Shown: positions 30,824-56,713 of the stretch, piece after piece
Numbering within the stretch: position 1 is the stretch's first letter
Layout of the letters: each line of letters opens with the position of its first letter
Assembly: GCA_019637585.1 (NCBI GenBank)
Contig: JAHBVL010000002.1
Coordinates: 380,023 to 444,022 of the forward strand
Origin: Thermomicrobiales bacterium
GTDB taxonomy: Bacteria > Chloroflexota > Chloroflexia > Thermomicrobiales > UBA6265
Length of the DNA stretch: 64,000 nucleotides
Direction: 5' to 3'
The notes under the pieces: generated by a model
What the model saw: the letters and a program-made list of their open reading frames with translations, nothing else
Database searches by the model: none
Told to the model about the DNA's origin: nothing
Translations under genes and position numbers: made by a program

Positions 30824-30989
30824 TGATCCCATACACCACATTGACAGACCCATCCGCCCCCTCCTATCCTCTCGCCAACAACTGAAGACGAGGCAAATCG
30901 ACGCTGACCAGGACGAGTACCGGGCATTCGGCGCCTCAGAAAGACCAGTATTCGATGCGAGCTGGTTCGTCTGAATTCCGGAGAAGACC

Positions 30990-31140
30990 ACCTGCGAGTT
31001 GCGTTCTGAACCTTTCCTCTGGAGAGCAGTAGGCGCGCCGGTTGACACCGTTATCCGTCGGAAGAGCGGTCATTCGTGACCGGAACTAGGGTGGAACCAC
31101 GTGCGCCAGACGTCCCTTTTCGGGTGTCTGGCGATTTTTG
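30990..31140 (+). promoter_or_regulatory. T-box riboswitch leader of thrS (5' boundary approximate)
   Basis: T-box sequence AACTAGGGTGGAACCACGTG at 31084-31103. Overlapping intrinsic terminator cgccagac...gtctggcg + ATTTTTG at 31104-31139. AGAG-containing stem-I-like region at 31021 onward. Candidate Thr ACC codons at 31047-31049 and 31079-31081; the specifier is not resolved. Confidence 0.7.
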
Positions 31141-39691: not shown

Positions 39692-40654
39692 ATGATCGAA
39701 CTCCTCGACTTGACGCTCGCGAATGCGCCAACCGAAGCGCCGCGCGATGCCTGGGGAAACGCGCTCTGCGATCTGGGCGATCGACATACCAACCTCGTCG
39801 TTCTGGACGGCGATCTGGCCAATTCGACCAAAGCAGACACCTTCGCCAAATGCCATCCGGACCGTTTCTATGAAATGGGCATCGCCGAGCAGAACCTGAT
39901 CGGCGTCGCGGCCGGTATGGCCTCCTGCGGATTCGTTCCCTGGGTCAGCACCTTCGCCGCTTTCCTGGCCAAACGAGCGCTCGACCAGATCCGGGTGGTG
40001 GTGGCACAACCCGGTCTGAATGTGAAACTCTGCGGCGGATATACCGGAATCCTCACGGGCAAAACCGGAAAAACGCATCAATCGGTCGAGGACATCGCCG
40101 TGTTTCGGGCCATGCCGGGTGTGGTCACCATCGCTCCTGCCGACGGGAATGAGCTCCGTGCCGCCATGACCGCGATGATGGCGGACGAGCGCCCCACCTA
40201 CCTCCGCCTGACCCGCGATCCGAGTCCAGTGGTCTTTCCCAGCGATTACGCATTCACGATCGGGGAGAGCGTCCTGTTGCGAAACGGCAGCGACATCGGG
40301 TTGATCAGCACCGGAGTGCAGACGATCAGGACACTCGAAGCTGCCGACCTGCTGGCCGCGGAGGGAATCCAGGCAGCGGTCCTCCACGTGCCGACTCTGA
40401 AACCGCTCGATATCGAGGGAATTCTCGCGATCGCCGAGCGAACCAACGCCATCATAACGGCCGAGGACCACTCCATCATCGGTGGTCTGGGCAGCGCTGT
40501 TGCCGAAGTGCTGGCCGAACACCGGCCAACCCGAATGCGTCGGGTCGGCTGGCAGGATACATTCGGCGAATCGGGGCCGAATGACGCGCTGCTGAAGAAA
40601 TATGGACTCACGGCTGGTCACGTTTGTGATGCGGCCCGGGCGATGCTGAATTGA
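39692..40654 (+). CDS. transketolase, C-terminal (pyrimidine-binding) subunit
   Basis: 'RFYEMGIAEQNLIGVAAGMA', 'STFAAFL'. ATG lies 2 nt after the upstream stop. Confidence 0.85.
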   Translation: MIELLDLTLANAPTEAPRDAWGNALCDLGDRHTNLVVLDGDLANSTKADTFAKCHPDRFYEMGIAEQNLIGVAAGMASCGFVPWVSTFAAFLAKRALDQIRVVVAQPGLNVKLCGGYTGILTGKTGKTHQSVEDIAVFRAMPGVVTIAPADGNELRAAMTAMMADERPTYLRLTRDPSPVVFPSDYAFTIGESVLLRNGSDIGLISTGVQTIRTLEAADLLAAEGIQAAVLHVPTLKPLDIEGILAIAERTNAIITAEDHSIIGGLGSAVAEVLAEHRPTRMRRVGWQDTFGESGPNDALLKKYGLTAGHVCDAARAMLN

Positions 40655-40670
40655 CCGCGAGGAGAGCCAC

Positions 40671-41684
40671 GTGACCGTTGATCGTGTTTCCGTTGCCCTC
40701 TTTGGCGCTGGGCGGATTGGCAAACGCCACGGCCGAACCCTGGCGTTCGACATTCCGGCGGCGGAGCTGAGCATCGTCTGCGATGTCGACGAAACCGCGG
40801 CTCGCCAGCTGGCAGCCGATCTTCGTTGCGATCGCTGGACGACCGATCCAGCGGACGTCTTCTCCGACCCGTCCATCGACGCCGTCGTCATCGGCACCTC
40901 GACGAACGCCCACGCGTCGCTGATCGCGGCGGCGGCCAGCGCCGGCAAGCATGCCTTCTGTGAAAAACCGGTGGCGCTCGATCTCGAGTCGACCGACACG
41001 GCGCTCGATGCGGTGACCAAGGCCGGCACGATACTGCAGATCGGGTTTCAGCGCCGTTTCGACAAGGGATTCGCCAAAGCGAAGCAGATGATCGACTCCG
41101 GCGCGATCGGCAAGGTGGAGTCGATTCGCGAATCGATGCGAGATCCCGGCCCGCCCCCTCCCGGCTATCTGCCGACCTCCGGCGGTCTCTACCGGGATAT
41201 GACCATCCACTGCTTCGACTGTCTCCGCTGGCTGGCGGGCGAAGAGGTGGCAGAGGTCTTCGCCATGGGCTCCAATCTGGTCGATCCCATCTTCGGCGAG
41301 CTGGGAGATATCGACACCAGCGTCGTCTCGATGCGGTTCGAGAGCGGCGCTCTGGGCGTGATCGACAATAGCCGCCGGTCCGCGTTCGGTTACGACGTCC
41401 GGGCCGAGGTGTTCGGTTCCGAAGGGGCGATCATGATCGGCTATTCGCGAGACACCCCCTTGTTGCATCTCTCCCCATCCGGTGTCTCCAGCGACCACGT
41501 CTACTGGTTTCTCGAACGGTTCGACGACGCCTTCGTCGCCGAGATGCACGCCTTCATTCGAAGCGTTCAGAGCGGCGCGCCGCCGCTGGTGACCGGGGCG
41601 GATGGACGTGCGGCCATGGCCCTTGCCTACGCCGCTGAAGCGTCGCTGAAGTCGCGCACGCCAATCTCGCCAGCCAACTTCTGA
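40671..41684 (+). CDS. iolG: Gfo/Idh/MocA oxidoreductase, inositol 2-dehydrogenase-like
   Basis: 'VALFGAGRIGKRH' Rossmann motif, 'EKP' motif 'AFCEKPVAL'. Context next to iolB and iolD. Confidence 0.7.
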   Translation: MTVDRVSVALFGAGRIGKRHGRTLAFDIPAAELSIVCDVDETAARQLAADLRCDRWTTDPADVFSDPSIDAVVIGTSTNAHASLIAAAASAGKHAFCEKPVALDLESTDTALDAVTKAGTILQIGFQRRFDKGFAKAKQMIDSGAIGKVESIRESMRDPGPPPPGYLPTSGGLYRDMTIHCFDCLRWLAGEEVAEVFAMGSNLVDPIFGELGDIDTSVVSMRFESGALGVIDNSRRSAFGYDVRAEVFGSEGAIMIGYSRDTPLLHLSPSGVSSDHVYWFLERFDDAFVAEMHAFIRSVQSGAPPLVTGADGRAAMALAYAAEASLKSRTPISPANF

Positions 41685-41696
41685 GGTGAATTGATC

Positions 41697-42596
41697 ATGG
41701 AACATCCCGACAGACTGCTCGTTCACTCGGCTGACGTGGAAGGGAACGGCATCGCGCTCGATATCTCAGTCGAGAGCGCCGGTTGGGAATATTGCGGCCT
41801 GACCGTCTGGACGCTCGAACCGCGAGGTTCGCTCGACGCCCAAACCGGCGCGGACGAAGTCTGCATTGTGCTGCTTGGCGGCGACTGCGTTGTCAGCGCC
41901 GGGGGACAGGAGTTCCGGCTCGACAGCCGGCCATCGATCTTCGCCGGAAAACCGGCTTCGGTGTACGTGCCCATCGATTCCAGCTATCAGGTCGTCGCTA
42001 GCGAAGTGACGCAGGTAGCCGTCTGCAAGTCCCGAGCGACTCGCTCCTTCCCGGTCCGCTACATCGGCCCCGAGGATGTACCGGTCGAGATCCGCGGCGC
42101 CGGGAATGCCGCCCGGCAGATCAACCACATCATCAAACCCGATTTCCCGGCCGATACGCTACTGGTCGTCGAGGTCTTCACCCCGAGCGGCAACTGGTCG
42201 AGCTATCCACCCCACAAGCATGACGTCAGCCGCATGCCGGCCGAAGCCGATCTGGAGGAGATCTACTACTACCGCATCGAACCAGCCGACGGGTTTGCCT
42301 TTCAACGGCTCTACACCGCCGACGGACCGGTCGATCAGCCCTACATCATTCACGACGGCGACGCGCTGATCATGCCCGAGGGGTACCACGCCTATGCCGT
42401 GGCCCATGGGTACACTGGCTACTACCTGAACATTCTGGCCGGGAATGAACCGGTCCGAACCATGCAGCCCTTCGACGACCCAACCTATGGGTGGGTGCGA
42501 GGCACATGGAGCGACAGCATGAACGAGGGACTCTCCAGCTGGCAGGACATCGACAACAGAATCAATGGCGCCGCCGGCAAGAAACCGGTCCAGTAA
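41697..42596 (+). CDS. iolB: 5-deoxy-glucuronate isomerase
   Basis: 'SYPPHKHD...EEIYYYR...MPEGYHAYAVAHGYTGYYLNILAG' IolB/KduI-cupin signature. Confidence 0.85.
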   Translation: MEHPDRLLVHSADVEGNGIALDISVESAGWEYCGLTVWTLEPRGSLDAQTGADEVCIVLLGGDCVVSAGGQEFRLDSRPSIFAGKPASVYVPIDSSYQVVASEVTQVAVCKSRATRSFPVRYIGPEDVPVEIRGAGNAARQINHIIKPDFPADTLLVVEVFTPSGNWSSYPPHKHDVSRMPAEADLEEIYYYRIEPADGFAFQRLYTADGPVDQPYIIHDGDALIMPEGYHAYAVAHGYTGYYLNILAGNEPVRTMQPFDDPTYGWVRGTWSDSMNEGLSSWQDIDNRINGAAGKKPVQ

Positions 42597-42622
42597 ACAC
42601 CCCATCGACGGGAGGACGACTG

Positions 42623-44494
42623 ATGGCAACGCGACGACTAACCATGGCCCAGGCCATCGTGACCTTTCTCCAGAATCAATATGTCGAGCGGGATGGCGTC
42701 GAGCAACGCCTCTTTGCCGGGATGCTCGGCATCTTCGGCCACGGCAACGTCTCTGGTATGGGTCAGGCGCTCGAAGAGCTTGGCGACGATCTGCCATTCG
42801 TCCGGCCCCAGAACGAGCAGGCGATGGTCCACTCGGCGATCGCCTACGCCCGGATGAAAAACCGGCTCCAGATGTATGCCTGCACCTCCTCGGTTGGGCC
42901 TGGTGCCACGAACATGATCACCGGCGCGGCCACTGCGACGGTCAACCGCCTGCCGGTCCTGCTCCTGCCGGGAGACACCTTTGCCAGCCGGCTTCCCCAC
43001 CCGGTGCTCCAGCAGCTGGAATATGTGCTGGGGCAGGATGTCTCGGTCAACGACTGCTTCCGGCCCGTCTCCAAATACTGGGACCGGATCAACCGTCCGG
43101 AACAGCTCCTCTCCGCTCTTCCCGAAGCCGTACGCGTGCTGACCGACCAGGCAGAGACCGGCGCCGTGACCATTGCCATGCCGGAAGACGTGCAAACCGA
43201 GGCCTACGACTACCCGGAATCGTTCGTCGAGAAGCAGGTGCGGCGGATCGTCCGCGGCATCGCTTCGGCCAGTGAAATCCAGCGCCTAGCCGATCTCCTT
43301 GCCGAATCGAAGCGGCCACTCATCGTCGCCGGCGGGGGCGTGATCTATAGCGAAGCATCGGAAACGCTGAGTCTCTTCGCCGAACGCTTCGGCATCCCGG
43401 TGGTGAATAGTCAGGCCGGTTCGGGGGCGATCCCATGGTCACATCAGTGGAACGCTGGTGCGGTTGGATCGAATGGCGCGCTGGCTGCAAATCGCCTGGC
43501 GGCATCAGCCGATCTGGTGCTGGCCATCGGCACCCGGTTTTCCGATTTCACGACCGCTTCGCACGCCGCGTTCCAGAATCCGGATGTGACATTCGCCTCG
43601 ATCAACGTCTGCGCCATGGACGCGCACAAGCTCGGTAGCTTCCCGGTGATCGCCGATGCGCGAGCCGGAATCGAACAGCTCAGCGAGGTCCTCGCGGCGC
43701 GCAACTATGCGTCTGCCGCCGCTTACGGCGACGAAGTGGAGCAGCTGAAAGCCGAATGGGATGCCATCACCACCGAAATCCGCACCCCGGTCGCCGGTGA
43801 AACGCTGAAACAGGGTCAGGCGATCGGCATCGTCAACGAAGCCTCGGAACCGACAGACGTCGTCGTTTGCGCGGCTGGCGGCATGCCGGGTGATCTCCTC
43901 AAACTCTGGCGCCCACTCGATCCCAAGGCGTACCACGTCGAGTATGGCTACTCCTGCATGGGCTACGAGATTGCCGGGGCGTTGGGCGTGAAAATGGCCG
44001 ATCCGAGCCGGGAAGTCTTCGTCATGGTTGGCGATGGCAGCTACCTGATGATGCATACCGAAATCGTCACATCGTTGCAGGAGGACCGGAAACTCATCGT
44101 CGTCGTCGTGGACAACAGCGGGTTCCAGTGCATTCGCGGGTTGCAGGAATCGACCGGCTCTCCGTCGTTCGGCAACGAGCTTCGCTATCGCTCAGACGCG
44201 ACCGGCAGGCTCGACGGCGACTACATCCCCATCGATTTCGCCGCCAATGCCGAGAGCTACGGCGCCATCGCCTATACCGCAGCCAACGCCGAGGAGCTAC
44301 GCGCCGCGCTCCAGTCGGCGCGATCGAACAACCGCACATCGGTCATCCATGTCTATGTCGACAAACGGATCACCGTGCCCGGCTTCGAGAGTTGGTGGGA
44401 CGTTCCCGTGGCGGAAGTCAGCGACCGACCGGGGGTACAAAAAGCGCTCGCCGACTACGAGAAAAACCGGGAGGAACAGCGCTACTTCGGTTGA
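42623..44494 (+). CDS. iolD: 3D-(3,5/4)-trihydroxycyclohexane-1,2-dione acylhydrolase (ThDP enzyme)
   Basis: 'RLTMAQAIVTFLQNQYVERDG...FAGMLGIFGHGNV' and 'GYSCMGYEIAGALG...VMVGDGSYLM'. Start at M45 of the ORF. Confidence 0.9.
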   Translation: MATRRLTMAQAIVTFLQNQYVERDGVEQRLFAGMLGIFGHGNVSGMGQALEELGDDLPFVRPQNEQAMVHSAIAYARMKNRLQMYACTSSVGPGATNMITGAATATVNRLPVLLLPGDTFASRLPHPVLQQLEYVLGQDVSVNDCFRPVSKYWDRINRPEQLLSALPEAVRVLTDQAETGAVTIAMPEDVQTEAYDYPESFVEKQVRRIVRGIASASEIQRLADLLAESKRPLIVAGGGVIYSEASETLSLFAERFGIPVVNSQAGSGAIPWSHQWNAGAVGSNGALAANRLAASADLVLAIGTRFSDFTTASHAAFQNPDVTFASINVCAMDAHKLGSFPVIADARAGIEQLSEVLAARNYASAAAYGDEVEQLKAEWDAITTEIRTPVAGETLKQGQAIGIVNEASEPTDVVVCAAGGMPGDLLKLWRPLDPKAYHVEYGYSCMGYEIAGALGVKMADPSREVFVMVGDGSYLMMHTEIVTSLQEDRKLIVVVVDNSGFQCIRGLQESTGSPSFGNELRYRSDATGRLDGDYIPIDFAANAESYGAIAYTAANAEELRAALQSARSNNRTSVIHVYVDKRITVPGFESWWDVPVAEVSDRPGVQKALADYEKNREEQRYFG

Positions 44495-44531
44495 CACCCA
44501 AGTCGTCGTCGCGCTAAAATGCCAGCCGCTT

Positions 44532-44608
44532 GGAGGCGTGGTGTAGTGGCCTAACATGCAGCCCTGTCAAGGCTGAGATCGCGGGTTCGAATCCCGTCGC
44601 TTCCGCCA
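44532..44608 (+). tRNA. tRNA-Asp (anticodon GTC), CCA encoded
   Basis: Acceptor ggaggcg/cgcttcc, anticodon stem cagcc/ggctg, loop ctGTCaa, T-arm gcgggttcgaatcccgt. Confidence 0.9.
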
Positions 44609-44753
44609 AATCGGCACGAGATTGAGCACACACACTACTCGAATTTGTGAGAATGAGAATATCTCTGGATGTTTCACCGTAGCACGAATGCTGCGGTGAT
44701 TTTCGTTTCGCGAAACCCGGCAAGTGTCGGCGTGATGCGTTCGTTCGCGAGAG

Positions 44754-46394
44754 GTGCGCCCAATGGCCATGGAAAACGAGCCCGCTTTGACCGCGAATGA
44801 TCGCGAGCAGTTGATCAGGCGACTCTTCGAAGTCCAGCTCGGGCGCTGTTTCATATGCGAAGAACCCATCGACCTGGATCTGCATGCCGGAAAACTGGAC
44901 GTGGACCATGTGCAACCCAAGAGTGGCCCGGATGGCAAGGACGATCCAGCCAATTTCGCCCTGACGCATAGCTCGTGCAATCGAAGCAAGCTGGCGAGTG
45001 ATCTGAGAGTTGCCAGAGTGCTGGCAAGATTCGAGCGTATTGGACGAGATGCTCGCAGTCAGGGCCGGGAAGCCCCCAATCTTGGGGACGTACTATCGGC
45101 GTTTGGAGGAGCACGATATGACTTGCCGATTTCGCTCTCAAGCGACGGTCGGGTCAGGTACAGCTTCAAGCATCTTGCAGGCACCGCGGGTATTAAGATT
45201 CAGGAGTCTAATCTCCACCAAGATCAACTTGCGCAAATGGACTACTTCTTCGCTGTCTTGCCACTTGAGTACATCCATCATGACTCAAAAGTGAATCCGC
45301 GTGGAATTGGGAAGAGTCTCCGAGGTTTGGTTGAAGAGTTCTACAAGGGAAACCCTCAGCTGCATGTGGCGCTGGGCTGGGTGCCGATGGAGGCCGATGG
45401 TGACGGGCGAGTCATGCTGTTTGACGGCCAACACAAGGCCGCTGCCCAGATTCTTTTGGGCCAGCGGACGTTGCCTGTGCGTGTGTTCGTCGATCCCGAT
45501 ATTGATCGTCTGATCGAAACAAACACAAATGCCGGCAGTACCCTTCGGCAAGTCGCGTTTGACAAGTCAATTCTGCGGCACCTCGGAAGCGAGCTGTACG
45601 CCGACCGCGTAAGGAAGTACCAACACGCCCACCACTTGTCCTCCGATGACGAGTCCTTCTCCGAAACAGATCTTGTCAAGCACTTCGCCGGAGAGGCCAG
45701 AGCAGTCCGTCGATACGTAGTAGATGCTGTGAGAGACCAGATCACACAGCACCCCGAGAACCGTCTTCGGTCATACATCGAGTTCTCGGGCAAGGGCACG
45801 GAGAAACCGATTTCGTACAGCACGATCGACAAGACATTCTTCTCACTTCTTGTTGGACAGGACATGTTGAGCACCCCGATCGGCCAGGGAACCGAGACAG
45901 GCGAGAATCCACGTGTACTGGAAGTGGAACAGATCGTCAGGCTGATGAACCTGGTTGCAGAGTCAATCTTTGAGGGCCAGTACGATTTTGAGATTGGGAC
46001 GTACCAACTGGAGGCGAAAGTCCAGAAGGGGGAAGATGTGCCAGAGAGCCACCTTCGCGCCTTCAGGATGGGAAAAGAAGAGGTCATGGCCGCTTGGCTG
46101 AAGTACGTTCAGAGAGTGATTGACCAATACTATCTGTTCAACGGTCTCTCCCTCCCATCACGGCGTGTTTTCCAGGTCAATCACCCCGAGCTGCTGTGGG
46201 AAAGACTGCGCGTCTTTCTGCACAATCTGGCGGGCCTGTCTCTCTGGACCAATCGCGAGCTTTCATTGCTGGCATTTGGCGGCAAACAGCCGGCGGGCTT
46301 CTGGGACACAGTGTTCGAAACTGGCAGGAATCCACAGGGTGCCCAGGTACTGCCTGAACCCCTGAACATCAACGCTCTCCTGGCACCCGCATGA
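44754..46394 (+). CDS. HNH endonuclease domain fused to a DGQHR (DndB/ParB-like) domain; orphan
   Basis: N-terminus 'CFICEEPIDLDLHAGKLDVDHVQPKSGPDGKDDPANFALTHSSCNRSK'. Centre 'GRVMLFDGQHKAAAQILLG...IETNTNAGSTLRQVAFDKS'. The likely start is ATG 44763, with RBS-like gagagg about 9 nt upstream. Lower GC than the flanks. Confidence 0.7.
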   Translation: MRPMAMENEPALTANDREQLIRRLFEVQLGRCFICEEPIDLDLHAGKLDVDHVQPKSGPDGKDDPANFALTHSSCNRSKLASDLRVARVLARFERIGRDARSQGREAPNLGDVLSAFGGARYDLPISLSSDGRVRYSFKHLAGTAGIKIQESNLHQDQLAQMDYFFAVLPLEYIHHDSKVNPRGIGKSLRGLVEEFYKGNPQLHVALGWVPMEADGDGRVMLFDGQHKAAAQILLGQRTLPVRVFVDPDIDRLIETNTNAGSTLRQVAFDKSILRHLGSELYADRVRKYQHAHHLSSDDESFSETDLVKHFAGEARAVRRYVVDAVRDQITQHPENRLRSYIEFSGKGTEKPISYSTIDKTFFSLLVGQDMLSTPIGQGTETGENPRVLEVEQIVRLMNLVAESIFEGQYDFEIGTYQLEAKVQKGEDVPESHLRAFRMGKEEVMAAWLKYVQRVIDQYYLFNGLSLPSRRVFQVNHPELLWERLRVFLHNLAGLSLWTNRELSLLAFGGKQPAGFWDTVFETGRNPQGAQVLPEPLNINALLAPA

Positions 46395-46409
46395 CCCATC
46401 GATCGACAT

Positions 46410-47105
46410 TCACTGAAGCGCGAAAAACATCCGCTCGTTGTCGTCAAAACTGAACAGTGGCTCCAAGACCATGACAATGGTGGCGGCTTCGTCTTCGGGA
46501 ATCTGCCAGCAAACGTTGGCGACCACTGTGCCACCGGGATAGAGCTCCGGTGCATTCATGATGCTGTTTGGCAACGATCCACAGCTGACTGTTTGGTCCG
46601 TATCGGCATAGGCAAGCCCCCTGGCGCCGACTACTTTGTAGCTCAAATCCCAGAAGATATTCCCCGTTTCGATTCCCTGATAGGTAAACTCCAGTGACGC
46701 CATGACCATGGTATTGCCCGGGGCAGCAGGATCATTGAATTGATTCTCGGCAAGCACCGCCGCTTCAGCATCAAAGTCAACAGACACTACGCTGATCAGG
46801 TAATCGCCCACTACCCCCGACTCACCTTTGGCGAGTGGGCCGGTCAGCGTCGAGCCGTCGCCGCTCGCCCCACCCGGAGCCGCCCGGGTGGTCATCCCGG
46901 CGGCTGGTGTGACGGCTGCTTCTCCAGATGGCGCCACAAGAGCAGCAACGGTTGCCTCGAGACTCGCGACGCGTTCTTCGAGTTCTGCGACCCGTCCTTC
47001 CAGGTCATCATCCTGGGCGTGGACATGCGGCGAGCCGAGCAGCGCCATCCCGGCGGCAATCGTCAGAAAAATGGAGAGCCGTCTGAGAACGAAAGGCATG
47101 CTCAT
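46410..47105 (-). CDS. secreted protein: signal peptide + coiled coil + DUF4352-like beta domain
   Basis: AGGAGG lies 7 nt before ATG 47105. 'MSMPFVLRRLSIFLTIAAGMALLGSPHVHAQ'. 'LEGRVAELEERVASLEATVAAL'. C-terminal 'VGDYLISVVSVDFDAE...' resembles DUF4352; the assignment is by eye only. Confidence 0.6.
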   Translation of the reverse strand: MSMPFVLRRLSIFLTIAAGMALLGSPHVHAQDDDLEGRVAELEERVASLEATVAALVAPSGEAAVTPAAGMTTRAAPGGASGDGSTLTGPLAKGESGVVGDYLISVVSVDFDAEAAVLAENQFNDPAAPGNTMVMASLEFTYQGIETGNIFWDLSYKVVGARGLAYADTDQTVSCGSLPNSIMNAPELYPGGTVVANVCWQIPEDEAATIVMVLEPLFSFDDNERMFFALQ

Positions 47106-47134
47106 CACCAAGCCTCCTGCGTACGAATTTGATA

Positions 47135-47235
47135 GTGGTCATAGTACCTGCAAGGACGTCACGTCGCGTCTCTCCCAAGATTCAATTCATCCGGCAGTTG
47201 CGGTGGACGCTTGCGCCCGTGCGGCGCGACGCGGC
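47135..47235. repeat. copy A of a ~100-nt conserved non-coding element
   Basis: About 70% identical to 49195-49298. Shares the perfect core TCCGGCAGTTGCGGT (47190-47204) and a small hairpin at 47155-47165. Confidence 0.85.
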
Positions 47236-47334
47236 CTCATTGACGGTCGCGGAAGCCCCACCAACCAGCAAGCATCCCGCTAACGACGAATGCGTTTGCA
47301 GACGCCGTTAGTCATGCAACTCACACCGTCGCCC

Positions 47335-49026
47335 CTACGGCACGATCTGAACGATAAATGCTCCCGGTTCGTTGTCGGAAAAGCACTGGTCTGGCTGGTT
47401 GTTGAACTCCGGCTGCATGTTGAACTGCACGAAAATCGCGACCCACGGATAGTCCACGAGCCAATCGGTCATCTCGAACTGGTAGGAGATCGTGTAGCTG
47501 TCGCTCTTGACCAGGACGTTCTCCGCATGATGGCCGGAAATTGAGTACCCGAAGCTGAAGATGCAGTTGCTGGTCGGCGGAGGGCCCCCGAACTGGATTC
47601 TGGCATTGAGATTTCCGCCTGGCGCGCAGAAAGCGCCGTAGATTGGGCCTCTTGAGGTAGCTTCCACCCATTCCAGAAAGTCGTCCGGAAAGATGAAATC
47701 GCAACCCAGCGCTCCCGGATCGTCGCTGAGCTCGTCTTCTGGCGCCGTCTCCTCCTCGGGCACGCAGACGCCATCCTCGCAGATATGCGTGTCCGCGCAG
47801 CAGATGTCGTTGGCGCAGAGACGGTGCGCCTCGCATCCGCAGGTGCCGGAGCCACCCGGACCACACGCGACCGTGTCGGGACAGCAAATCGAACCGCAGC
47901 TCTGACCACCAAGCGTTTGGCAACATTGGTAGAAGAGCGCATCCGAGTCGGTGCTGCCACAACCTGCTCCATCGATCATCTCGCAGATCGTGGGAATCCC
48001 GGTCAGCTCGTGAAACGCCTCACCTGCCAACTCTGTCGCCAGGTCGAATAGGTCGCCGATTCGTTCCTCGATGCGTGATTCGGGTATCCGGGCGAGAAAC
48101 GGCATCCGCCTCAGGTGAATATCGATGGCCCAACGAATGGTCTCGGCCTTCACCCATGCTTGCCCCGCGTACTGCTTCAGGAGGTTCATAGCCTGGGTGT
48201 CGGCCATCGAGAGCGCCTTACCCATCACGCGGCCGAAGACGATCTCGCAAGACACTAGTCCGACACCCGAACACATCTGGTGATAGAAGCGCGTGCAGCC
48301 GGCAGTGGACAAAGGCGTCGCGCCTGAGGACGTTTGCGCCGCCAGGGCTTTCACCTCTCCGCCGCCGGCGGTTGACTCAGGGGCTTCGTCCATCGCCGCC
48401 CGCAACTCATCGATGGTGATCGATCCCAGTTCCCCGTCGATGACGAAAAGGAGCGTCGCCCGTGCGGTTCCCGGCTCGATCACGGCGGAGACCAATGACC
48501 GGACAGGGTCACGGTCGAAGTCGGTGATGTACGACAGTCTGGCTTCCCTGCCCGCCGCGTCGATATAGGGTTCTCCGGTGAACTCACGAAGCGTGGCGCC
48601 GCTCGTATCGACGAGAAAGAGCGTCGAGAGGGCAGATCGAGGCGCAAACCCGCGATCGGCCAGCTCCGACCTCAATATCTGCACCTGCTCGGTCAGAGGT
48701 CCGTCCGCTGCGCTGCCTCGCTCGATGGCCAGGTCGCGCTGAACCTCGGAGAAGCAGGTCACGGAACAGGTATCCGGCTCGACAATTCCCGCCGCGAGAT
48801 CGATCTGCAGGACGTGGCACTGGCCATCACCCGGGCATGGTGTCGCACTACCCTCCTGGTCCGAACCTCCCCCGCGGAGCTCGCCTTCCTGCAGCGATGC
48901 TGCGGCTTCGCCAGTTCGAAACGTGAATGCGGCGAGCAAACCACCGGCGATTGACCTGAAGAGACTGCGTCGCCCCGTGGTCGCTGCGAATCGCCGGGCG
49001 AAGGAATCGAATCCAGACTCGTTCAA
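47335..49026 (-). CDS. Tat-signal secreted Cys-rich protein, no recognisable domain
   Basis: 'TGRRSLFRSIAGGLLAAF' twin-arginine signal. Cys-rich block 'CCQTLGGQSCGSICCPDTVACGPGGSGTCGCEAHRLCANDICCADTHICEDGVCV'. 563 aa. Confidence 0.6.
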   Translation of the reverse strand: MNESGFDSFARRFAATTGRRSLFRSIAGGLLAAFTFRTGEAAASLQEGELRGGGSDQEGSATPCPGDGQCHVLQIDLAAGIVEPDTCSVTCFSEVQRDLAIERGSAADGPLTEQVQILRSELADRGFAPRSALSTLFLVDTSGATLREFTGEPYIDAAGREARLSYITDFDRDPVRSLVSAVIEPGTARATLLFVIDGELGSITIDELRAAMDEAPESTAGGGEVKALAAQTSSGATPLSTAGCTRFYHQMCSGVGLVSCEIVFGRVMGKALSMADTQAMNLLKQYAGQAWVKAETIRWAIDIHLRRMPFLARIPESRIEERIGDLFDLATELAGEAFHELTGIPTICEMIDGAGCGSTDSDALFYQCCQTLGGQSCGSICCPDTVACGPGGSGTCGCEAHRLCANDICCADTHICEDGVCVPEEETAPEDELSDDPGALGCDFIFPDDFLEWVEATSRGPIYGAFCAPGGNLNARIQFGGPPPTSNCIFSFGYSISGHHAENVLVKSDSYTISYQFEMTDWLVDYPWVAIFVQFNMQPEFNNQPDQCFSDNEPGAFIVQIVP

Positions 49027-49194
49027 GGGACAACTCCGTCGCGCTGGTCACCGGCAGCCGGCTACATGGAGCCCGGCGAACCAGCACGTGACGAGCACGA
49101 ATCACTACAACGGCGCGGCCCGCACGACCACCCTGCATTCGTACCCACATGGATCGACCGATCCTAAATCACCATACATAAGGTCGTCAAGTCG

Positions 49195-49298
49195 TTGGTC
49201 CCGCTACCTGCGAGGGCGAAACGCCCCCTCCCCTTCCCAGAATCACCTCTTCCGGCAGTTGCGGTATACGCTAGTGCTTGATGCGGCGTGACCGCAGC
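49195..49298. repeat. copy B of the ~100-nt conserved non-coding element
   Basis: Core TCCGGCAGTTGCGGT at 49251-49265 and a hairpin at 49214-49226. Ends 26 nt before the iron-permease-family gene start. Confidence 0.85.
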
Positions 49299-49323
49299 AT
49301 CTTTGATTCGGGAGGGGACACCT

Positions 49324-49695
49324 ATGGCCAGCTGGTTCTCGCATTTCTCCGCCCGGATGGCGACGATCGCCGGTCGGTGGGAGACGTTCATCGCCGCCTT
49401 TCTCCTCGTCGTACTGTGGGCGGCCTCGGGGCCGTTCTTCGGCTTCTCCGACGCCTGGCAGCTCGTCATCAACACCGGCACCACAATCAGCACCGGCCTG
49501 ATGGTCTTTCTCATCCAGAACTCCCAGAATCGCGACTCAGCCGCTATCCATCTGAAACTCGACGAGCTGATCCGGGCCACCGAAGCAGCCGACGATGCGA
49601 TCATTGAGGCGGAAGAGGAAACCGATGCCGAGCTGGCATCGCTGAAGCAGATGTATCTCTCGCTGATCGAAGCGCATCACAAAGAGCGATCGTGA
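49324..49695 (+). CDS. low-affinity iron permease family (PF04120-like) small membrane protein
   Basis: 'FSARMATIAGRWETFIAAFLLVVLWAASGPFFGFSDAWQLVINTGTTISTGLMVFLIQNSQNRDSAAIHLKLDELI'. RBS gggagggg precedes ATG 49324. Confidence 0.7.
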   Translation: MASWFSHFSARMATIAGRWETFIAAFLLVVLWAASGPFFGFSDAWQLVINTGTTISTGLMVFLIQNSQNRDSAAIHLKLDELIRATEAADDAIIEAEEETDAELASLKQMYLSLIEAHHKERS

Positions 49696-49818
49696 CCCGC
49701 TCCGGGATCCGGGGAACTCTGGCGCGGCGCGAGCCGTTATTCCGGTATGGTTGGGGTTGATACGCCTCGGCACACCGGCGCTTTCGTGCTGACCCAGCGA
49801 GGTACAGAAAGGACACCA

Positions 49819-51069
49819 ATGAAACGCTTGCCCCTCCTCCTGGTGGCGCTGTTGATCTCACCCCTCGTCGCGGGGGTGTCCAGCGCACAGACCGACCAGC
49901 AGTCGACGCTCGTCGCCGGCAACTCGACCTTCGCCTTCGATCTCTATGCGCAGCTGCGCGACAGCACCGATGGCAATCTGGTCTTCTCCCCGTACAGCGT
50001 CTCACAAGCGCTGGCTATGACCTATGCCGGCGCGCGCGGCGAAACCGCTGAGCAATTGGGGACCGCTCTGGCTTTTGGCGTCGAGCAGGATGCCCTTCCG
50101 GAGATTTTCTCAGCACTGAATGCGAGCCTGCTGGAACGCGGCAGTGCTGAGGCCGACGAATCCAACGGCACAGCGGCGCGCGCGCTGCGCATTGCGAATG
50201 CGCTCTGGGGCGAAGAGACATTTCCGTTCGACCCAGACTTCACCGCACTCCTCGAAGCCGCCTATGGCGCGGGTATCCAGCCAGCCGACTTCATCAACGA
50301 TCCCGAAGGCACTCGCGAGGCGATCAATGCCTGGGTCGCCGAACAAACCGAGAACCGCATTCAGGAGATCATCCCCGAGGGTGTCCTGACTCCCCTGACC
50401 CGCCTGGTTCTGGCCAACGCCATCTACTTCTATGGGGCGTGGCAATTCACCTTCGCAGAGAGCGCGACGGACGAGCAGGATTTCCATCTCCTGGATGGCA
50501 GCGTCATCGGCGTGCCGACGATGCATCAGACCGAAGATTTCCAGTACGGCGCGGCCGACGGATTGCAGATCGTCGAGCTTCCCTATCAGGGGAGCGGTAT
50601 GACATTCACGATTCTCCTTCCGGACGAAGGGGCATTCGGTGATTTCGAAAGTTCTCTTTCGTTGGAGACACTGAACAACGCGCTGGCGATTCCCACCAGC
50701 ACCGAAATCGAGCTCTACTTGCCCAAATTCGAGTTCGAGTACTCGGCCGGATTGACAGACGCCCTGAAAGCGCTGGGCATGACGGCGGCCTTCGACGGCG
50801 GCAGCGCAGATTTCACCGGCATGGTCGATGGAACACCTCCAGATCCTCTGGTCATCAGCGATGTTCTGCACAAGGCATTCATCGCCATCGACGAAGACGG
50901 CACGGAAGCGGCAGCGGTCACGGCAGTCATCGTGGGAGCCGCCGCGGCAGCTCCCGATCCCACCGAGCCACCAGTTGTTCGCATCGACCGGCCGTTTGTT
51001 TTCGTCATTCGCGACGTGGAAACAGGTACCATTCTCTTCCTGGGCCGGGTGCTCGACCCCTCCGCCTGA
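49819..51069 (+). CDS. secreted serpin (inhibitory-type hinge)
   Basis: Signal 'MKRLPLLLVALLISPLVAGVSSAQ'. 'NLVFSPYSVSQALAMTYAGARGET'. Hinge/RCL 'GTEAAAVTAVIVGAAAAAPDPTEPP'. 'DRPFVFVIRD'. Confidence 0.85.
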   Translation: MKRLPLLLVALLISPLVAGVSSAQTDQQSTLVAGNSTFAFDLYAQLRDSTDGNLVFSPYSVSQALAMTYAGARGETAEQLGTALAFGVEQDALPEIFSALNASLLERGSAEADESNGTAARALRIANALWGEETFPFDPDFTALLEAAYGAGIQPADFINDPEGTREAINAWVAEQTENRIQEIIPEGVLTPLTRLVLANAIYFYGAWQFTFAESATDEQDFHLLDGSVIGVPTMHQTEDFQYGAADGLQIVELPYQGSGMTFTILLPDEGAFGDFESSLSLETLNNALAIPTSTEIELYLPKFEFEYSAGLTDALKALGMTAAFDGGSADFTGMVDGTPPDPLVISDVLHKAFIAIDEDGTEAAAVTAVIVGAAAAAPDPTEPPVVRIDRPFVFVIRDVETGTILFLGRVLDPSA

Positions 51070-51091
51070 GCGAGCTGAGCCCCTTGCCGAA

Positions 51092-51119
51092 CCAGAGCAC
51101 GAGCGCTCTCGTGCTCTGG
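51092..51119 (+). terminator. hairpin downstream of the serpin gene
   Basis: ccagagcacgag-cgct-ctcgtgctctgg: 12-bp perfect stem, no strong T-tract. Confidence 0.5.
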
Positions 51120-51177
51120 CAACATCATCGAACGCATCTGGCGATTCCCGCACCGCCATTGGCGCCAGGAGGCATCA

Positions 51178-51963
51178 ATGCCGGCTCGAGCCATGTGGAA
51201 AGCTGAGATCGTCGCCGGCGACTTCACCGTTCCCATCCGTCTTTATTCCGTTCTCGAGAGCAAAACGGTCCGCTTCCGGCTTCTGCATGCCAAAGACCTG
51301 GAGCCGGTTTTTCAGCAGATGGTCGATCCATCGACCGGCCAACCCGTGTCCGCCGAGGAGATTCGGCGCGGAGTGGAGGTCGAACCGGGCGTCTACGTTC
51401 TGATCACCGACGAAGAGCAACAGGAGCTGACCCCTCCCGAGTCCCGCACCATCGCTGTCGAGAGGGTGGTGAACCGGAGTGCCATCGACCAGCGCTGGTT
51501 CGATCATCCCTACTATCTGGGACCGGATGGCAACACCGACAGCTACTTCGCGTTCGCCGAAGCGCTGGCATCGAGCGATCAGGTCGCAGTCGTCCAGTGG
51601 GTCATGCGCAAATCCCGGTACAACGGCGCCATTCATGCCGCCGGCGGCTATCTGATGATCCAGACTTTTCGATCCGCGGAGGAACTGCTCAAGATCGATC
51701 CGGTTCGGGTTCCCCAGAACCGGGCTCCCGACGAGCGGGAGCTGCGCCTGGCCGAACAATTGATCACGGCGCTCAAAGATGACTTCGACCCCGCCGCCTA
51801 TCAGGATGAGTACCGGAAACAGGTGCTGGAACTGATCGAGATGAAGGCATCGGGCAAACTGGTCAAGTTCCCCAAAGCGAAAAAGGAAAAGGAGGAACCC
51901 TCGCTGCTGGAAGCCCTGGAAGCGAGTCTGGGTCAACCGAGAAAGGCGGCGGCCGGTGCCTGA
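51178..51963 (+). CDS. ku: Ku DNA end-binding protein (paralogue 1)
   Basis: 'RAMWKAEIVAGDFTVPIRLYS' Ku core N-terminus; Lys-rich tail; 261 aa. Confidence 0.9.
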   Translation: MPARAMWKAEIVAGDFTVPIRLYSVLESKTVRFRLLHAKDLEPVFQQMVDPSTGQPVSAEEIRRGVEVEPGVYVLITDEEQQELTPPESRTIAVERVVNRSAIDQRWFDHPYYLGPDGNTDSYFAFAEALASSDQVAVVQWVMRKSRYNGAIHAAGGYLMIQTFRSAEELLKIDPVRVPQNRAPDERELRLAEQLITALKDDFDPAAYQDEYRKQVLELIEMKASGKLVKFPKAKKEKEEPSLLEALEASLGQPRKAAAGA

Positions 51964-52993
51964 GAAGTATCACAAGCGCCGCGACTCCGGCGAACCATTC
52001 CCATTCTGGAGTGGCACGATCAGCTTTGGTCTCGTCAGCGTGCCTGTCGATCTCTACTCGTCGGTGCGCACCCATCGCGTGCCGATGCGCATGCTCTCCA
52101 GCAAGGGCGTCCCCCTCAAGCGGAAGTACTTCTGTTCGGCGGAGAACATTCAGCTGACGCCGAAAGAGGTCGTACGAGGGTTCGAGCAGGAAGACGGCTC
52201 GTTCGTCACGGTCACCGACGAAGAACTGGAGAAACTGGCACCCCGAAAATCACGCGATATCGATCTTCGCCTCTTTGTCGATCGCAATGCAATTCCCGTG
52301 GGGCTCTATCAACGCCCCTACGTGCTGGCGCCAGGCGGGGAATCGACCAAGGCATATCATCTCCTGGCGCAAACGATGGAGGAGATGAATCTGGCGGGAA
52401 TCGCCACATTTGTCATGCGCGGAAAAGAGTATCTGGCGGCAATCACCGCGGAAGAGGGGATTCTCCGCGCCACCACCCTGCACTTCAGCGACGAGATCCG
52501 CACCCCTGACGCGATTGGTCTCCCCGACATCCAGAAAGCTCCTGATACCGTCCGAAAGAGCGCGCAAAACGCGCTGTCCTCGCTGGAGAAAGAGGAAATC
52601 GACCCCTTCCTCTTCATCGACCGGACCGCCGCCGACCTGATCGAGCTCGCAACGGCTAAACAGGAGGAATCGCGCGACGTCATCGAGGTCAGCACGGAGG
52701 TTGACACCGCAGAAGCGGATGATGACGGGGACAATGTCATCGACATCATGTCGCTGCTGCGCAAACGGATGGACGGCAAGGGAGGGTCGAGCAGCGAATC
52801 GAAGCAACCGAAGGAACGATCCGCCGAGCCACCGAAAGACCGATCGAAACGCGACGACACGAGCGTTGAAGATGCTGATCTGGAGTCGGCAAGCAAACAG
52901 GAGCTCTACGACAAGGCGTCCGAGATGGAGATCGCCGGCCGGAGCAGCATGTCCAAAGACCAGCTTCTCGCCGCGATCCGCAAAACCAGGTGA
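51956..52993 (+). CDS. ku: Ku DNA end-binding protein (paralogue 2) with an acidic/basic linker and a C-terminal HeH/Rho_N-like motif
   Basis: GTG start overlapping the ku1 end by 8 nt. 'FWSGTISFGLVSVPVDLYS'. C-terminus 'ELYDKASEMEIAGRSSMSKDQLLAAIRK'. Confidence 0.85.
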   Translation: MPEKYHKRRDSGEPFPFWSGTISFGLVSVPVDLYSSVRTHRVPMRMLSSKGVPLKRKYFCSAENIQLTPKEVVRGFEQEDGSFVTVTDEELEKLAPRKSRDIDLRLFVDRNAIPVGLYQRPYVLAPGGESTKAYHLLAQTMEEMNLAGIATFVMRGKEYLAAITAEEGILRATTLHFSDEIRTPDAIGLPDIQKAPDTVRKSAQNALSSLEKEEIDPFLFIDRTAADLIELATAKQEESRDVIEVSTEVDTAEADDDGDNVIDIMSLLRKRMDGKGGSSSESKQPKERSAEPPKDRSKRDDTSVEDADLESASKQELYDKASEMEIAGRSSMSKDQLLAAIRKTR

Positions 52994-55390
52994 TCAGCCG
53001 AGCAGCGATCGGCGCGACGATTCAAACGCCTGCCACGGGTTGCGCTTTCTCGCCTTGATCAGATCGGGCACCTCGCGCAAGCTCACGTTGGGAGGACCGC
53101 TGCCCTCCGGCGCCAGCTGATCCCATTCGATGGGCAGCGCCACAGTTGCTCCTGGTCTCGCTCTGGGTGAATAGGGAGCGATCGCCGTCGCCTGGCGATC
53201 GTTGCGCAGATAGTCCACAAAGACCTTGTCCACCCGTTTCGCTTTGGACATCGACGCGGTGTACCGGTCCGGCTGGGAGGCGGCTAGCTCCTCTGCCAGC
53301 GCACGAGCAAACTTCTTGACCGCCGGCCAGGTGGGACCGGGTTCGACCGGAACGACGACGTGCACCCCTTTGCCGCCGGTCAGCTTGGCGAATGGGACGA
53401 GTCCCAGCGCCTCCACCCTTCCCTTCACCTCTTCTGCCGCCTCGACAACTCTGCGCCAGGGCAGCCCCTCGGCAGGATCGAGATCGAAGGTGATCTGATC
53501 GGGTTGATCGAGATGACCCGCTTTCGAACCCCAGGTGTGAATCTCGATCACACCAATCTGGGTGAGACCGATGAGCGACTGCACGGAGTCGACCATCGCG
53601 TAGGGGTCGCCTTCCTCTTCGACATCGACCCGCGGCACGATGTCGGGAACTCCGGCTCCAGCGTGCTTCTGATAGAAGCATTCTCCGTCGATACCTTCCG
53701 GGCACCGGAGCAACGACAGCGGCCGGTGCTCCATGTAGGGGAGGGCGTCCGGGGCGATGGTTTTCCAGTAGCCGGCCAGATCCTGCTTGCTCACCTGAAC
53801 GTCGGGCCAGAGGATTTTGTCTGGATTCGTCAGCCTGACTCGTTTGGATGCCGCCTTGCTCGATTTCGGTTTCGCGGTCATCTGCTGCTCCTTCACCACC
53901 GTCTCCGCTGGTTTGTCGTCGCGCAACCCCCGGAAACTCGGATGCCGCAACACGCCAGAATCGGTCCAGCCAGTGAATTCGACTTCAGCCACAAGTTCCG
54001 GTTTGACCCAGGTCGCGTCCCGAATGCCGATGCCGGGGACCTCCCCCTCCACCGGCGGCGAGTCGATCTCGATGGCGTCGAGCATCTTCCGCACCGACAG
54101 GAGGGTCTCCTGGTCGTATCCAGTGCCCACCCTTCCGGCGTAGCGCAGCGGTTGCCCGATTTCGTCGCGGGTACCGACAAGCAGCGCACCGAATCCCTGT
54201 CTGCGCCCCTCCGGTTTTGTACAGCCGATGACGACGAACTCCTGCCGCTGCACGCACTTCGCTTTCAGCCAGCTCGACGCCCTGCCCGGTTCGTAGGAGT
54301 CGCCGGCGCGTTTGCAAATGATCCCCTCCAACCCCATCTTGCAGGCTTCATCGAGAAACGCCTGGCCATTCCCGGCGACATGGTCGCCGAAGCGGATCGT
54401 CCCTTTCTGGCTGTCGCCCACGATCGAGCGAGCGACTCGCTTGCGGTCGACGAGGGAAGCGCCCCGCAGATCCCACCCGTCGAAGAAGAGCGCGTCGAAC
54501 ACGACGTAGACAATCGACGCATCGCGAGTGCGAACGGCGTTCTGCAATCGCTGAAAGCTCGAAATGCCCGCCGAATCGAGCACTACGGCTTCGCCATCGA
54601 GAAGCGCGAAGGTGCAGGGCAACCTGGCGGCCGCTTCCGCAACGTGGGGGAAACGGTCGGTCCAGTCATGTCCATTCCGGGTGATCAGCGTGACGTTCCC
54701 ATGATCGACGAGGCAGAAGAGGCGGTATCCGTCGAGCTTCGGTTCGTGGATCCAGTCGTCCCCCTGCGGAACTGTCTCCGTCACCGACGCCAGCTGGAAT
54801 CCGATATCGCCGAACGACGAAGCCTGCGTCACTCCGGCAAGGGATGAGACATCGAGCGCTTCACGCGGCCGGACCGATTCCTTCGCCGCGTACTTGGCAT
54901 CATTGCGCTTAATCAGCAGCCAGTTGTCTTTTCTGGCCGTTTTGAGCTTCTTGTTGCCAATCCGCACCAGCGACCACCGGCCGCTCAGTTTTTCGCCGTG
55001 GAGTGTGAAATCGAGCCGGCCCATGGCGATCGCTCTGGCCGGGTGATCGTCCGACGGTTCCCAGGTTCCCTGATCCCAGATCACCATCGAACCGGCGCCA
55101 TATCCCGGGGCGGGAATCTCTCCTTCGAATGTCAGGTACTCCAGCGGGTGATCCTCGGTCTGAACCGCCAGACGCCTCAACCCGACTTCCATCAGCGGTT
55201 CCTTGGGCACCGCCCAGCTCCTGAGCACGCCTTCGTACTCCAGCCTCAGGTCATAATGCAGCGTCGAGGCATCGTGCTTCTGCACGACAAAACGCCATCC
55301 TTCGCCGGAGGCGGACTCTTCATCACCAGCAGGCTCCGGCGTGGCGGAGAAATCTCGCTTCTGACGATAGTCGCGGAGTTTGCTGCTCAT
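52994..55390 (-). CDS. ligD: multifunctional ATP-dependent DNA ligase D (phosphoesterase-ligase-polymerase order)
   Basis: N-terminus 'LRDYRQKRDFSATPEP...FVVQKHDASTLHYDLRLE' (PE). Central 'EPKLDGYR' (ligase KxDG). C-terminal 'LTNPDKILWP...FYQKH...FDLDP' (LigD polymerase). Its stop abuts the ku2 stop (tgatca). Confidence 0.9.
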   Translation of the reverse strand: MSSKLRDYRQKRDFSATPEPAGDEESASGEGWRFVVQKHDASTLHYDLRLEYEGVLRSWAVPKEPLMEVGLRRLAVQTEDHPLEYLTFEGEIPAPGYGAGSMVIWDQGTWEPSDDHPARAIAMGRLDFTLHGEKLSGRWSLVRIGNKKLKTARKDNWLLIKRNDAKYAAKESVRPREALDVSSLAGVTQASSFGDIGFQLASVTETVPQGDDWIHEPKLDGYRLFCLVDHGNVTLITRNGHDWTDRFPHVAEAAARLPCTFALLDGEAVVLDSAGISSFQRLQNAVRTRDASIVYVVFDALFFDGWDLRGASLVDRKRVARSIVGDSQKGTIRFGDHVAGNGQAFLDEACKMGLEGIICKRAGDSYEPGRASSWLKAKCVQRQEFVVIGCTKPEGRRQGFGALLVGTRDEIGQPLRYAGRVGTGYDQETLLSVRKMLDAIEIDSPPVEGEVPGIGIRDATWVKPELVAEVEFTGWTDSGVLRHPSFRGLRDDKPAETVVKEQQMTAKPKSSKAASKRVRLTNPDKILWPDVQVSKQDLAGYWKTIAPDALPYMEHRPLSLLRCPEGIDGECFYQKHAGAGVPDIVPRVDVEEEGDPYAMVDSVQSLIGLTQIGVIEIHTWGSKAGHLDQPDQITFDLDPAEGLPWRRVVEAAEEVKGRVEALGLVPFAKLTGGKGVHVVVPVEPGPTWPAVKKFARALAEELAASQPDRYTASMSKAKRVDKVFVDYLRNDRQATAIAPYSPRARPGATVALPIEWDQLAPEGSGPPNVSLREVPDLIKARKRNPWQAFESSRRSLLG

Positions 55391-55420
55391 TGCTGATGCG
55401 CCTCGCCGTCCGGCATGGGC

Positions 55421-56554
55421 TCAGAGCCGCCCGGCATCCCTGAGAATCCTGACCACGTTGTCGACCGGGATCGCCTCGCGGACATGGCCATCCCGGCCCA
55501 CGACTGTCGTCGCCTTGAACAGTGCGTTGAGGATCGCTTCTTCGGTCGCTTCCACCGTAGCGGCAAAAAGCGCATCGATGGCGTCGCTGGCGCCTCTGAT
55601 CCCATGTTCCGCGACGATTTCCTGCCGCAACGTCCACCCATCGGCTTCGAGCGGCATGCGAACGAGGGGTGATGCCGAAAACGCGACGACCACGTCACCA
55701 CTGCCATGCCCGCCCATCGAACCGGTGCGGGCCATGCCCAGCACGGCCCGGCGAGCGATGCGGCCGAGAATCCGGTCGGTACAGGGAGCATCGGTGCCGA
55801 CGATCATCATGATCGAGCCGCGTTCCGGTTCGATGTCCCGCTCTTCGTCCAGCAACCGGCCGACCGGCACGCCATCGATCCGAAGATCGCGGGGACGGCC
55901 GAAGTTGGCCAGAACGAGAACGCCGACCGTCCAGCCCCCCAGATCGGGGGAGATCACCCGCGAGCTGGTGCCGATGCCGCCTTTGAACCCATAGGCCGAC
56001 ATCCCGGTACCTGCCCCGACCGACCCTTCGTCGACTGCTCCCTGAGTCGCACCATCGATGGCCCGCATCACCTCTGTTTCCCCAACATGCCTGCCCTGAA
56101 TGTCGTTGAGCCAGGCATCGGAGCATTCGCCTACGAACGGATTGACGGTTGGAAGGGAAATGCCGATTTCGGCATTCTCCCGGATGGCGTGGCTCACCAG
56201 CGCGTCGGCAACCCTGCCGACGCACAACGTGGAGGTGAGTCCAATCGGCGTTTCGAGCTGACCAAGCTCCGCAACCTGCTCGAGACCCATGCATTTGCCG
56301 AAGCCGTTGAAGACATGAACCGCCGCCGGTACCCGCTCCCGAAAGAGATTGCCCTGATGAGGCAGGATCACTGTCACACCGGTTCGCGCCGGCCCTTCGC
56401 CTGCTCTCAACTGACCGTGACCGGAACTGACCGTCACCTGCCCCACCGACACGCCGGGGACATCGGTGATGGCGTTCAGGTTTCCCGGAGAGAGGACGCC
56501 GATCCCCATGCCGATATCGCGAAAACGAGGGCGATGGTCTGGTGTCACGCGCAT
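55421..56554 (-). CDS. P1/S58 (DmpA/BapA-type) aminopeptidase family protein
   Basis: 'GNLNAITDVPGVSVGQVTV...GVTVILP' and 'GTGMSAYGFKGGIGTSS'. Start at M59 of the ORF. Confidence 0.75.
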   Translation of the reverse strand: MRVTPDHRPRFRDIGMGIGVLSPGNLNAITDVPGVSVGQVTVSSGHGQLRAGEGPARTGVTVILPHQGNLFRERVPAAVHVFNGFGKCMGLEQVAELGQLETPIGLTSTLCVGRVADALVSHAIRENAEIGISLPTVNPFVGECSDAWLNDIQGRHVGETEVMRAIDGATQGAVDEGSVGAGTGMSAYGFKGGIGTSSRVISPDLGGWTVGVLVLANFGRPRDLRIDGVPVGRLLDEERDIEPERGSIMMIVGTDAPCTDRILGRIARRAVLGMARTGSMGGHGSGDVVVAFSASPLVRMPLEADGWTLRQEIVAEHGIRGASDAIDALFAATVEATEEAILNALFKATTVVGRDGHVREAIPVDNVVRILRDAGRL

Positions 56555-56713
56555 TCCTTCTGTCCAGTCAGCGGTGCAATGCCGTACGACAATCGTACAG
56601 TCTCTGCGCTTCTGGCCGGGACCGGCATTCGGCGACACGTCCGCTGAATTTGTACACTGCACGCAACGACAAGAGCATCGTTCCTCGCCAACCCGAACGG
56701 TCGCACGCCGAAC

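Follow-up and report, generated by a model that had tools for sequence, protein, structure and literature searches.

Divergent, or bidirectional, promoter regions occur between bacterial genes that stand back to back, and the concept of duplication-degeneration-complementation describes how duplicated regulatory DNA becomes subfunctionalised. The duplication-random-loss model of gene-order change, best documented in animal mitochondrial genomes, recognizes its events by duplicated non-coding sequence that persists (PMC5745709; PMC3283314). Here we compare with these systems a locus in a metagenome-assembled genome (MAG) of the Thermomicrobiales (Chloroflexota). The window, as we call the whole stretch analyzed, comprises 64,000 nucleotides (GenBank assembly GCA_019637585.1, contig JAHBVL010000002.1, positions 380,023 to 444,022), in which two copies of a non-coding element of about 100 nt, A and B, bracket a gene encoding a cysteine-rich (Cys-rich) protein. 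The initial annotation had proposed that the element was a shared cis-regulatory module, either an operator/promoter or a structured leader RNA, and had named as the alternative a scar left by duplication or insertion of a cassette. Comparison with a close relative supports that alternative: A and B are very probably a duplicate, generated by rearrangement, of one ordinary spacer between two divergent genes.

The likeness between the two copies is real. When we re-read the window sequence, the coordinates given earlier for A, B, their common core and their hairpins all proved correct, and the identity of roughly 70% that had been estimated by hand agrees with a BLASTN comparison of A against the window, in which the alignment with B spans 111 columns (72% identity; E 3.5e-13). 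The 15-nt core TCCGGCAGTTGCGGT is exact at 47190–47204 and 49251–49265, and the small hairpin motifs are present as described (gacg-tca-cgtc at 47155–47165 in A, gggcg-aaa-cgccc at 49214–49226 in B). The central 45 nt of the pair also came up in a repeat scan of the window, as a direct repeat with two copies. In an nhmmer search with a profile of A and B, no further copy appeared in the 64 kb (best other match, E 1.7), as had been claimed, and the only near-match to the core elsewhere in the window, with 2 mismatches, lies within a coding region (63862–63876). The placement of the copies relative to the genes was also right. The left end of A lies 17 nt from the AGGAGG ribosome-binding site (RBS) of a DUF4352-like/DUF7310-like secreted protein gene (DUF gene; 46410–47105, minus strand), which lies downstream of A and starts with the ATG at 47105. 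B lies 169 nt from the TTG start, at 49026, of the Cys-rich gene (47335–49026, minus strand), which carries a twin-arginine (Tat) signal. On its other side B reaches the RBS and the ATG, at 49324, of a gene of the low-affinity iron permease family (49324–49695, plus strand; PF04120, Pfam E 8e-46), which lies downstream of it.

A homologue search with the DUF protein led us to the JGI (Joint Genome Institute) contig Ga0498930_0000104 (263,713 bp; hereafter L001), the only close relative found, whose proteins are 84–98% identical to those of the window. Written in the orientation of the window, the order in L001 is tRNA-Asp, Cys-rich gene, DUF gene, a 125-nt spacer, permease gene, serpin gene, two Ku genes and LigD gene; that in the window is tRNA-Asp, an insert with an HNH-domain gene, DUF gene, A, Cys-rich gene, B and permease gene. 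The DUF proteins of the two genomes are about 87–88% identical and the permease proteins 96%, and the Cys-rich protein is 92% identical to the product of a 564-amino-acid gene that in L001 is placed on the other side of the DUF gene. We reached this L001 copy through synteny only, as a word-index protein search returned just the query. A search of metagenome contigs for related loci with the Cys-rich protein gave no confirmed relative, and the protein appears to be an orphan family confined to this small clade.

In L001 the sequence shared by A and B is single-copy and coincides with the 125 nt that separate the divergently transcribed DUF and permease genes. This adjacency of permease gene, single spacer and DUF gene is found on contigs of three separate JGI samples (L001; L002/L005; L006). 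Both A and B align to this single 125-nt spacer in L001, L002 and L006, the nhmmer profile matches exactly these, and the spacer sequences of L001 and L002 are identical. The relative carries an arrangement like that of a divergent promoter region, and in the window each copy abuts one of the two genes; unlike in such a region, the sequence is present twice in the window, is partly truncated, and contains no consensus sigma70 promoter that we could recognize.

BLAST blocks between the two genomes follow the same division. Window 40000–44612, with a thiamine pyrophosphate (TPP) enzyme gene and tRNA-Asp, corresponds to L001 17436–12824 (93%); 44613–46409, the window-only HNH insert, has no counterpart; 46410–47230, with the DUF gene and A, corresponds to 10729–9909 (81%); 47230–49192, with the Cys-rich gene, its downstream region and its promoter, corresponds to 12801–10840 (88% at the nucleotide level); and 49217–58000, with B and the permease gene onward, corresponds to 9986–1205 (91%). 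A therefore falls into one block with the DUF gene and B into one block with the permease gene, and the two are overlapping copies of L001 ~9909–~10005. Given that the DUF and Cys-rich genes occupy swapped sides in the two genomes, we conclude that a local rearrangement took place and that ~95 nt of the spacer were duplicated with it.

The breakpoints of the gene-order difference (~47230 and ~49193–49197) coincide with the boundaries of the copies, which are at the same time the ends of the relocated Cys-rich block (47230–49192, minus strand; Cys-rich gene, a downstream hairpin at ~47281–47312, and the gene's own promoter and leader). At the first junction (47225–47232), the element on the left gives way, on the right, to sequence from downstream of the Cys-rich gene, with CGC.GC microhomology. 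The BLAST blocks meet here at 47230, alignments to L001 9876–9970 and 12690–12830 show the switch, and to the right of it the window is closer to the Cys-rich downstream region of L001 than to B. The extent of 47135–47235 given earlier for A consequently stands up to ~47229; from ~47230 the sequence is the Cys-rich downstream region by descent, orthologous to that of the relative, and A proper is 47136–~47229. At the second junction (49193–49197), placed by pairwise alignments together with the BLAST blocks, the promoter region of the Cys-rich gene meets the left end of B, and the window lacks the DUF gene, its leader and ~110 nt downstream, all of which are present at this place in L001. The 9-nt sequence CGTTGGTCC at 49194–49202, at the left edge of B, equals L001 10756–10764, 27–35 nt past the DUF stop codon. 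With a rough chance-match estimate of ~0.01, it is a hint only; the 9 nt may have been left over from the lost sequence downstream of the DUF gene, or may have served as microhomology for the deletion. No remnants of the lost L001 segment 10730–10839 were found elsewhere in the window.

With these boundaries, A (47136–47229, no strand assigned) is the DUF-proximal copy of the divergent DUF/permease intergenic region, shortened on the side that faces the permease gene, and B (49196–49323, plus strand) is the permease-proximal copy. The part of B duplicated in A is 49196–~49292; the remaining 49293–49323 is the RBS region of the permease gene and is absent from A. Conversely, the 5′ leader of the DUF gene with its RBS (47106–47135, minus strand; AGGAGG at 47113–47118), which is conserved with L001, is joined to A and is not duplicated in B.

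The pattern of divergence adds to this picture, as each copy resembles the L001 spacer best on the side attached to its own gene. Over the whole element the identities are 68.6% for A and B, 62.4% for A and L001, and 69.2% for B and L001. In the part facing the DUF gene (alignment columns 45–80), A and L001 agree at 67%, A and B at 61%, and B and L001 at just 47%. In the part facing the permease gene (columns 126–160) B is the copy closer to L001 (79–82%, against 62–69% for A, with A and B at 76%), and beyond the first junction (columns 161–190) B and L001 agree at 82%, A having 46% with either. The half of each copy averted from its gene thus looks like drifting, redundant DNA. As in the concept of subfunctionalisation introduced above, each copy best retains the half serving the adjacent gene while the other half degenerates; in contrast to it, only the shared spacer is duplicated here and the genes are not, and the pattern is read from ~100 nt and one outgroup sequence. 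Across eight orthologous genes that flank the element, window and L001 are 79% identical overall at four-fold degenerate sites (range 64–87%). The divergence of ~28% between A and B is therefore close to the neutral divergence of the two lineages, which makes the duplication roughly as old as their split. Among the flanking genes, the DUF gene and the serpin gene (49819–51069) are 64% identical to L001 at four-fold sites and their neighbors 77–87%, which suggests that these two secreted-protein genes have recombined patchily with other strains or have had different histories.

The likeness to duplication-random-loss lies in three features: adjacent genes are swapped between close relatives, a duplicated non-coding segment stays at the new boundaries, and redundant parts decay, with a functional upstream region left to each gene, the last of which we infer for this locus. 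Differences from the mitochondrial cases are that this is a bacterial chromosome, that no pseudogene remnants of lost gene copies are present (the 9-nt match at the left edge of B being the only possible remnant), that a separate foreign HNH gene fills the vacated site, and that cut-and-paste, template switching or import from another strain fits equally well. We therefore envisage a local rearrangement that would have set the Cys-rich block between the DUF and permease genes while copying ~95 nt of spacer. It may have proceeded by tandem duplication of the Cys-rich gene, DUF gene and spacer, after which one copy each of the Cys-rich and DUF genes was lost, by replicative relocation or a template switch, or by import of a fragment with the DUF gene and spacer from a related strain. 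The import route would also be in line with the DUF gene being more diverged at four-fold sites. In functional terms, A would provide the DUF gene with its native promoter and leader, B would provide the permease gene with its own, and the Cys-rich gene would be driven by its own promoter, moved along with the gene, and not by B.

Several points weigh against this interpretation. The comparison covers only two lineages, so that either arrangement may be the ancestral one; the permease contig of the next relative, L007, is 839 bp long and its upstream sequence cannot be aligned. On neither strand did the element yield a sigma70-like promoter, so that A and B are given promoter roles from their position only. 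The search of the source genome for copies covered the 64-kb window, as that genome is absent from the genome collection used. Finally, the central 20–30 nt are closer between A and B than either is to L001: in 20-column windows within columns 99–128, A and B agree at 84–90%, A and L001 at 58–65%, and B and L001 at 74–75%. This central likeness could stem from selection or gene conversion, or from lineage-specific indels in the relative.

The well-conserved center also speaks for the operator/promoter module of the initial annotation, in which the core TCCGGCAGTTGCGGT and its flanks would bind one regulator, be kept by selection, and co-regulate the DUF, Cys-rich and permease genes. A loose CCG-N7-CGG symmetry in the core and the position of both copies upstream of minus-strand genes are in keeping with it. 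If it were true, the duplication would have wired the DUF and permease genes, and possibly the Cys-rich gene, into one lineage-specific regulon. We consider it unlikely. The core is disrupted in L001, which has TTCCATCCGGTGCGAT with indels (aligned as CCATCCGG----TGCGAT), and there is no other intergenic core-like site in the 64-kb window. Furthermore, in column-shuffling trials a perfect run of 15 within 95–111 columns at 72% identity arose with P = 0.11–0.15; at this level of identity the run is not unusual and is expected by chance. As for the central ~30 nt themselves (~47185–47215 in A, ~49246–49276 in B), it is unlikely that they are a regulator site held by selection or gene conversion, although they would be the candidate for one. 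A regulatory role holds only in the trivial sense that each copy still is the original upstream sequence of the one gene next to it.

The Cys-rich gene, for its part, would not depend on the element for a promoter. In 46900–49500 the sole promoter-like site is the sigma70-like TTGACG-N18-TAGGAT (49190–49161, minus strand), which sits between B and the Cys-rich gene and, judged from its position, implies ~130 nt of leader ahead of the TTG start codon (49026). L001 has the same two hexamers (10842–10871), with a differing spacer and with no element upstream. Since the promoter is kept in L001 without the element, where the gene would function with this promoter of its own, B is not needed to explain Cys-rich expression. 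Like the broken core, this speaks against a shared operator. At the other end of the gene, just past the stop codon, a hairpin of 9–10 bp (47281–47312, minus strand; L001 12718–12749) is kept in L001. In the fold outputs, two pairs of its stem appear to be altered on both sides, from A-U to G-C (CUAACGGCG.../...CGUCGUUAG versus CUGGCGGCGU.../...GCGUUGCCAG). This hairpin, which has no T-run, may be a terminator or a 3′ stabilizer.

The second proposal of the initial annotation was a structured leader RNA. Taken more broadly, as a leader, riboswitch-like element or small RNA that has two copies and is made from one of the strands, such an RNA could draw on hairpins in matching columns of A and B, with one base pair altered on both sides, and the plus strand of B does fold better than its shuffles (z = −2.28). 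The minus strand of B (z = −0.62) does not stand out in the same way, and A folds no better than shuffles on either strand (z = +1.13 plus, −0.08 minus). Consensus folds of A and B gave differing, low-information structures on the two strands, as derived from two sequences. The compensatory pair of the first hairpin had likewise come from two sequences only; the third, L001, breaks 3 of the 4 pairs, and the hairpin is lost there. The second stem-loop fared better in one copy than in the other. In B (TGCGG-CGTGA-CCGCA, 49282–49296, plus strand), ~28 nt upstream of the permease ATG, its 5 pairs are intact, as they are in L001, and it is the only sub-motif fully kept in both. In A, where it had been taken as positionally conserved, its 3′ arm lies on the first junction, and 4 pairs are left, one of them G-U, plus a gap. 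In L001 a simple scan calls TGCGG-N5-CCGCA with a T-rich tail before the permease gene terminator-like, which would favor an RNA element. The stem is invariant in B and L001 and thus shows no covariation. Over the alignment of A, B, L001 and L002, the observed covariation score was matched or exceeded by 387 of 500 shuffles.

Conservation gives the RNA proposal no more support. The left half of B is just 47% identical to the orthologous spacer, and nothing alignable or detectable was found upstream of permease homologues at 62–79% protein identity, a set consisting of L007 (79%, with a syntenic permease–serpin arrangement) and L009–L013 (other Thermomicrobiales MAGs with differing neighborhoods). 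L007 was rejected as an outgroup, its 193-nt upstream stretch containing neither a DUF or Cys-rich start nor an alignable element. At Rfam gathering thresholds no family matched A or B in a search of the whole window, and none matched at E ≤ 10 in 46900–49500. A and B are similar to Rfam riboswitch and leader families, and to repetitive extragenic palindromic (REP) sequences or miniature inverted-repeat transposable elements (MITEs), in being non-coding, ~100 nt long, upstream of genes and endowed with small hairpins; they differ in having no covariance-model match, no covariation and no conservation past the nearest relative. Taken together, these results make a structured RNA extremely unlikely. 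A 17-nt inverted repeat (48896–48912/49285–49301; 82% complementary) connects the region of the second hairpin in B with the 5′ coding sequence of the Cys-rich gene over a distance of 372 nt, and is probably due to chance.

Direct repeats that bracket a single gene, which moreover is placed differently in L001 and lies close to a tRNA gene and to an HNH gene of apparently horizontal origin, are also what a mobile element might leave, with A and B as attachment (att)-like sites or terminal direct repeats of a Cys-rich cassette, or as members of a MITE or REP family. This is very unlikely. The repeat unit is the native DUF/permease spacer of the relative. Moreover, repeats of ~95 nt at 72% identity are unlike short, identical att cores; no integrase, transposase or recombinase domain is encoded in or beside the bracketed segment; terminal inverted repeats are absent and, unlike REP and MITE families, the element has only two copies in the 64 kb; and the window contains no second copy of the 3′ end of tRNA-Asp. 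With BLASTN, A had no match among plasmids and B none among phages. The pattern TCCGGCAGTTGCGGTNNACGCT, with 20 specified bases, had 0 matches in viral contigs, and the pattern conserved between B and L001, TACGCTAGTN{3,4}GATGCGGCNTGACCGC, had 0 in metagenome contigs. In 185,579 species genomes, among which the source genome is absent, TCCGGCAGTTGCGGTNNACGCT matched one Burkholderiales MAG; we judged this match to be chance, as the likeness does not extend past ~35 nt.

The genes around the element complete the description of the locus. The DUF start at 47105 agrees with the NCBI model of a 231-amino-acid protein, whose homologues carry PF11611 and whose own match to PF23991 is weak. The Cys-rich protein has 563 amino acids, with no match to a Pfam or NCBIfam family. 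The permease gene is followed by genes for the serpin, two Ku proteins and LigD. On the other side of the locus, the gene for the TPP-dependent enzyme (42491–44494, plus strand) and tRNA-Asp (44532–44608, plus strand) precede the window-only 1.8-kb insert (44613–46409, plus strand), which starts directly after tRNA-Asp, has no match in L001 and contains a single HNH-domain gene (44754–46394, plus strand; HNH by Pfam). The insert, with a GC content of 0.55 compared with 0.62 for the window, occupies the site at which the relative has its Cys-rich gene, and tRNA-Asp flanks this site in both genomes. It looks like a horizontally acquired single-gene islet. The HNH gene encodes 546 amino acids, with an N-terminal nuclease domain that weakly matches the HNH regions of Cas9 and PtuB models and a mid-protein 'DGQHK' motif; the remainder has no family match. 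Farther away, at 30895–31120, the window matches Rfam RF00230 with 97.3 bits, which exceeds the gathering score; this T-box leader is unrelated to A and B.

Nothing at the locus points to a regulatory RNA, a family of repeats or a mobile element that would be new; A and B are very probably a new instance of a known phenomenon, the duplication scar of an intergenic region. The case calls for caution, as two non-coding look-alikes of ~100 nt may share a perfect core and matching hairpins and yet be no more than a single promoter spacer that a local rearrangement has doubled. For the Thermomicrobiales (Chloroflexota), the locus is a small example of adjacent accessory genes swapping their order, with the junctions mapped to a few bases.

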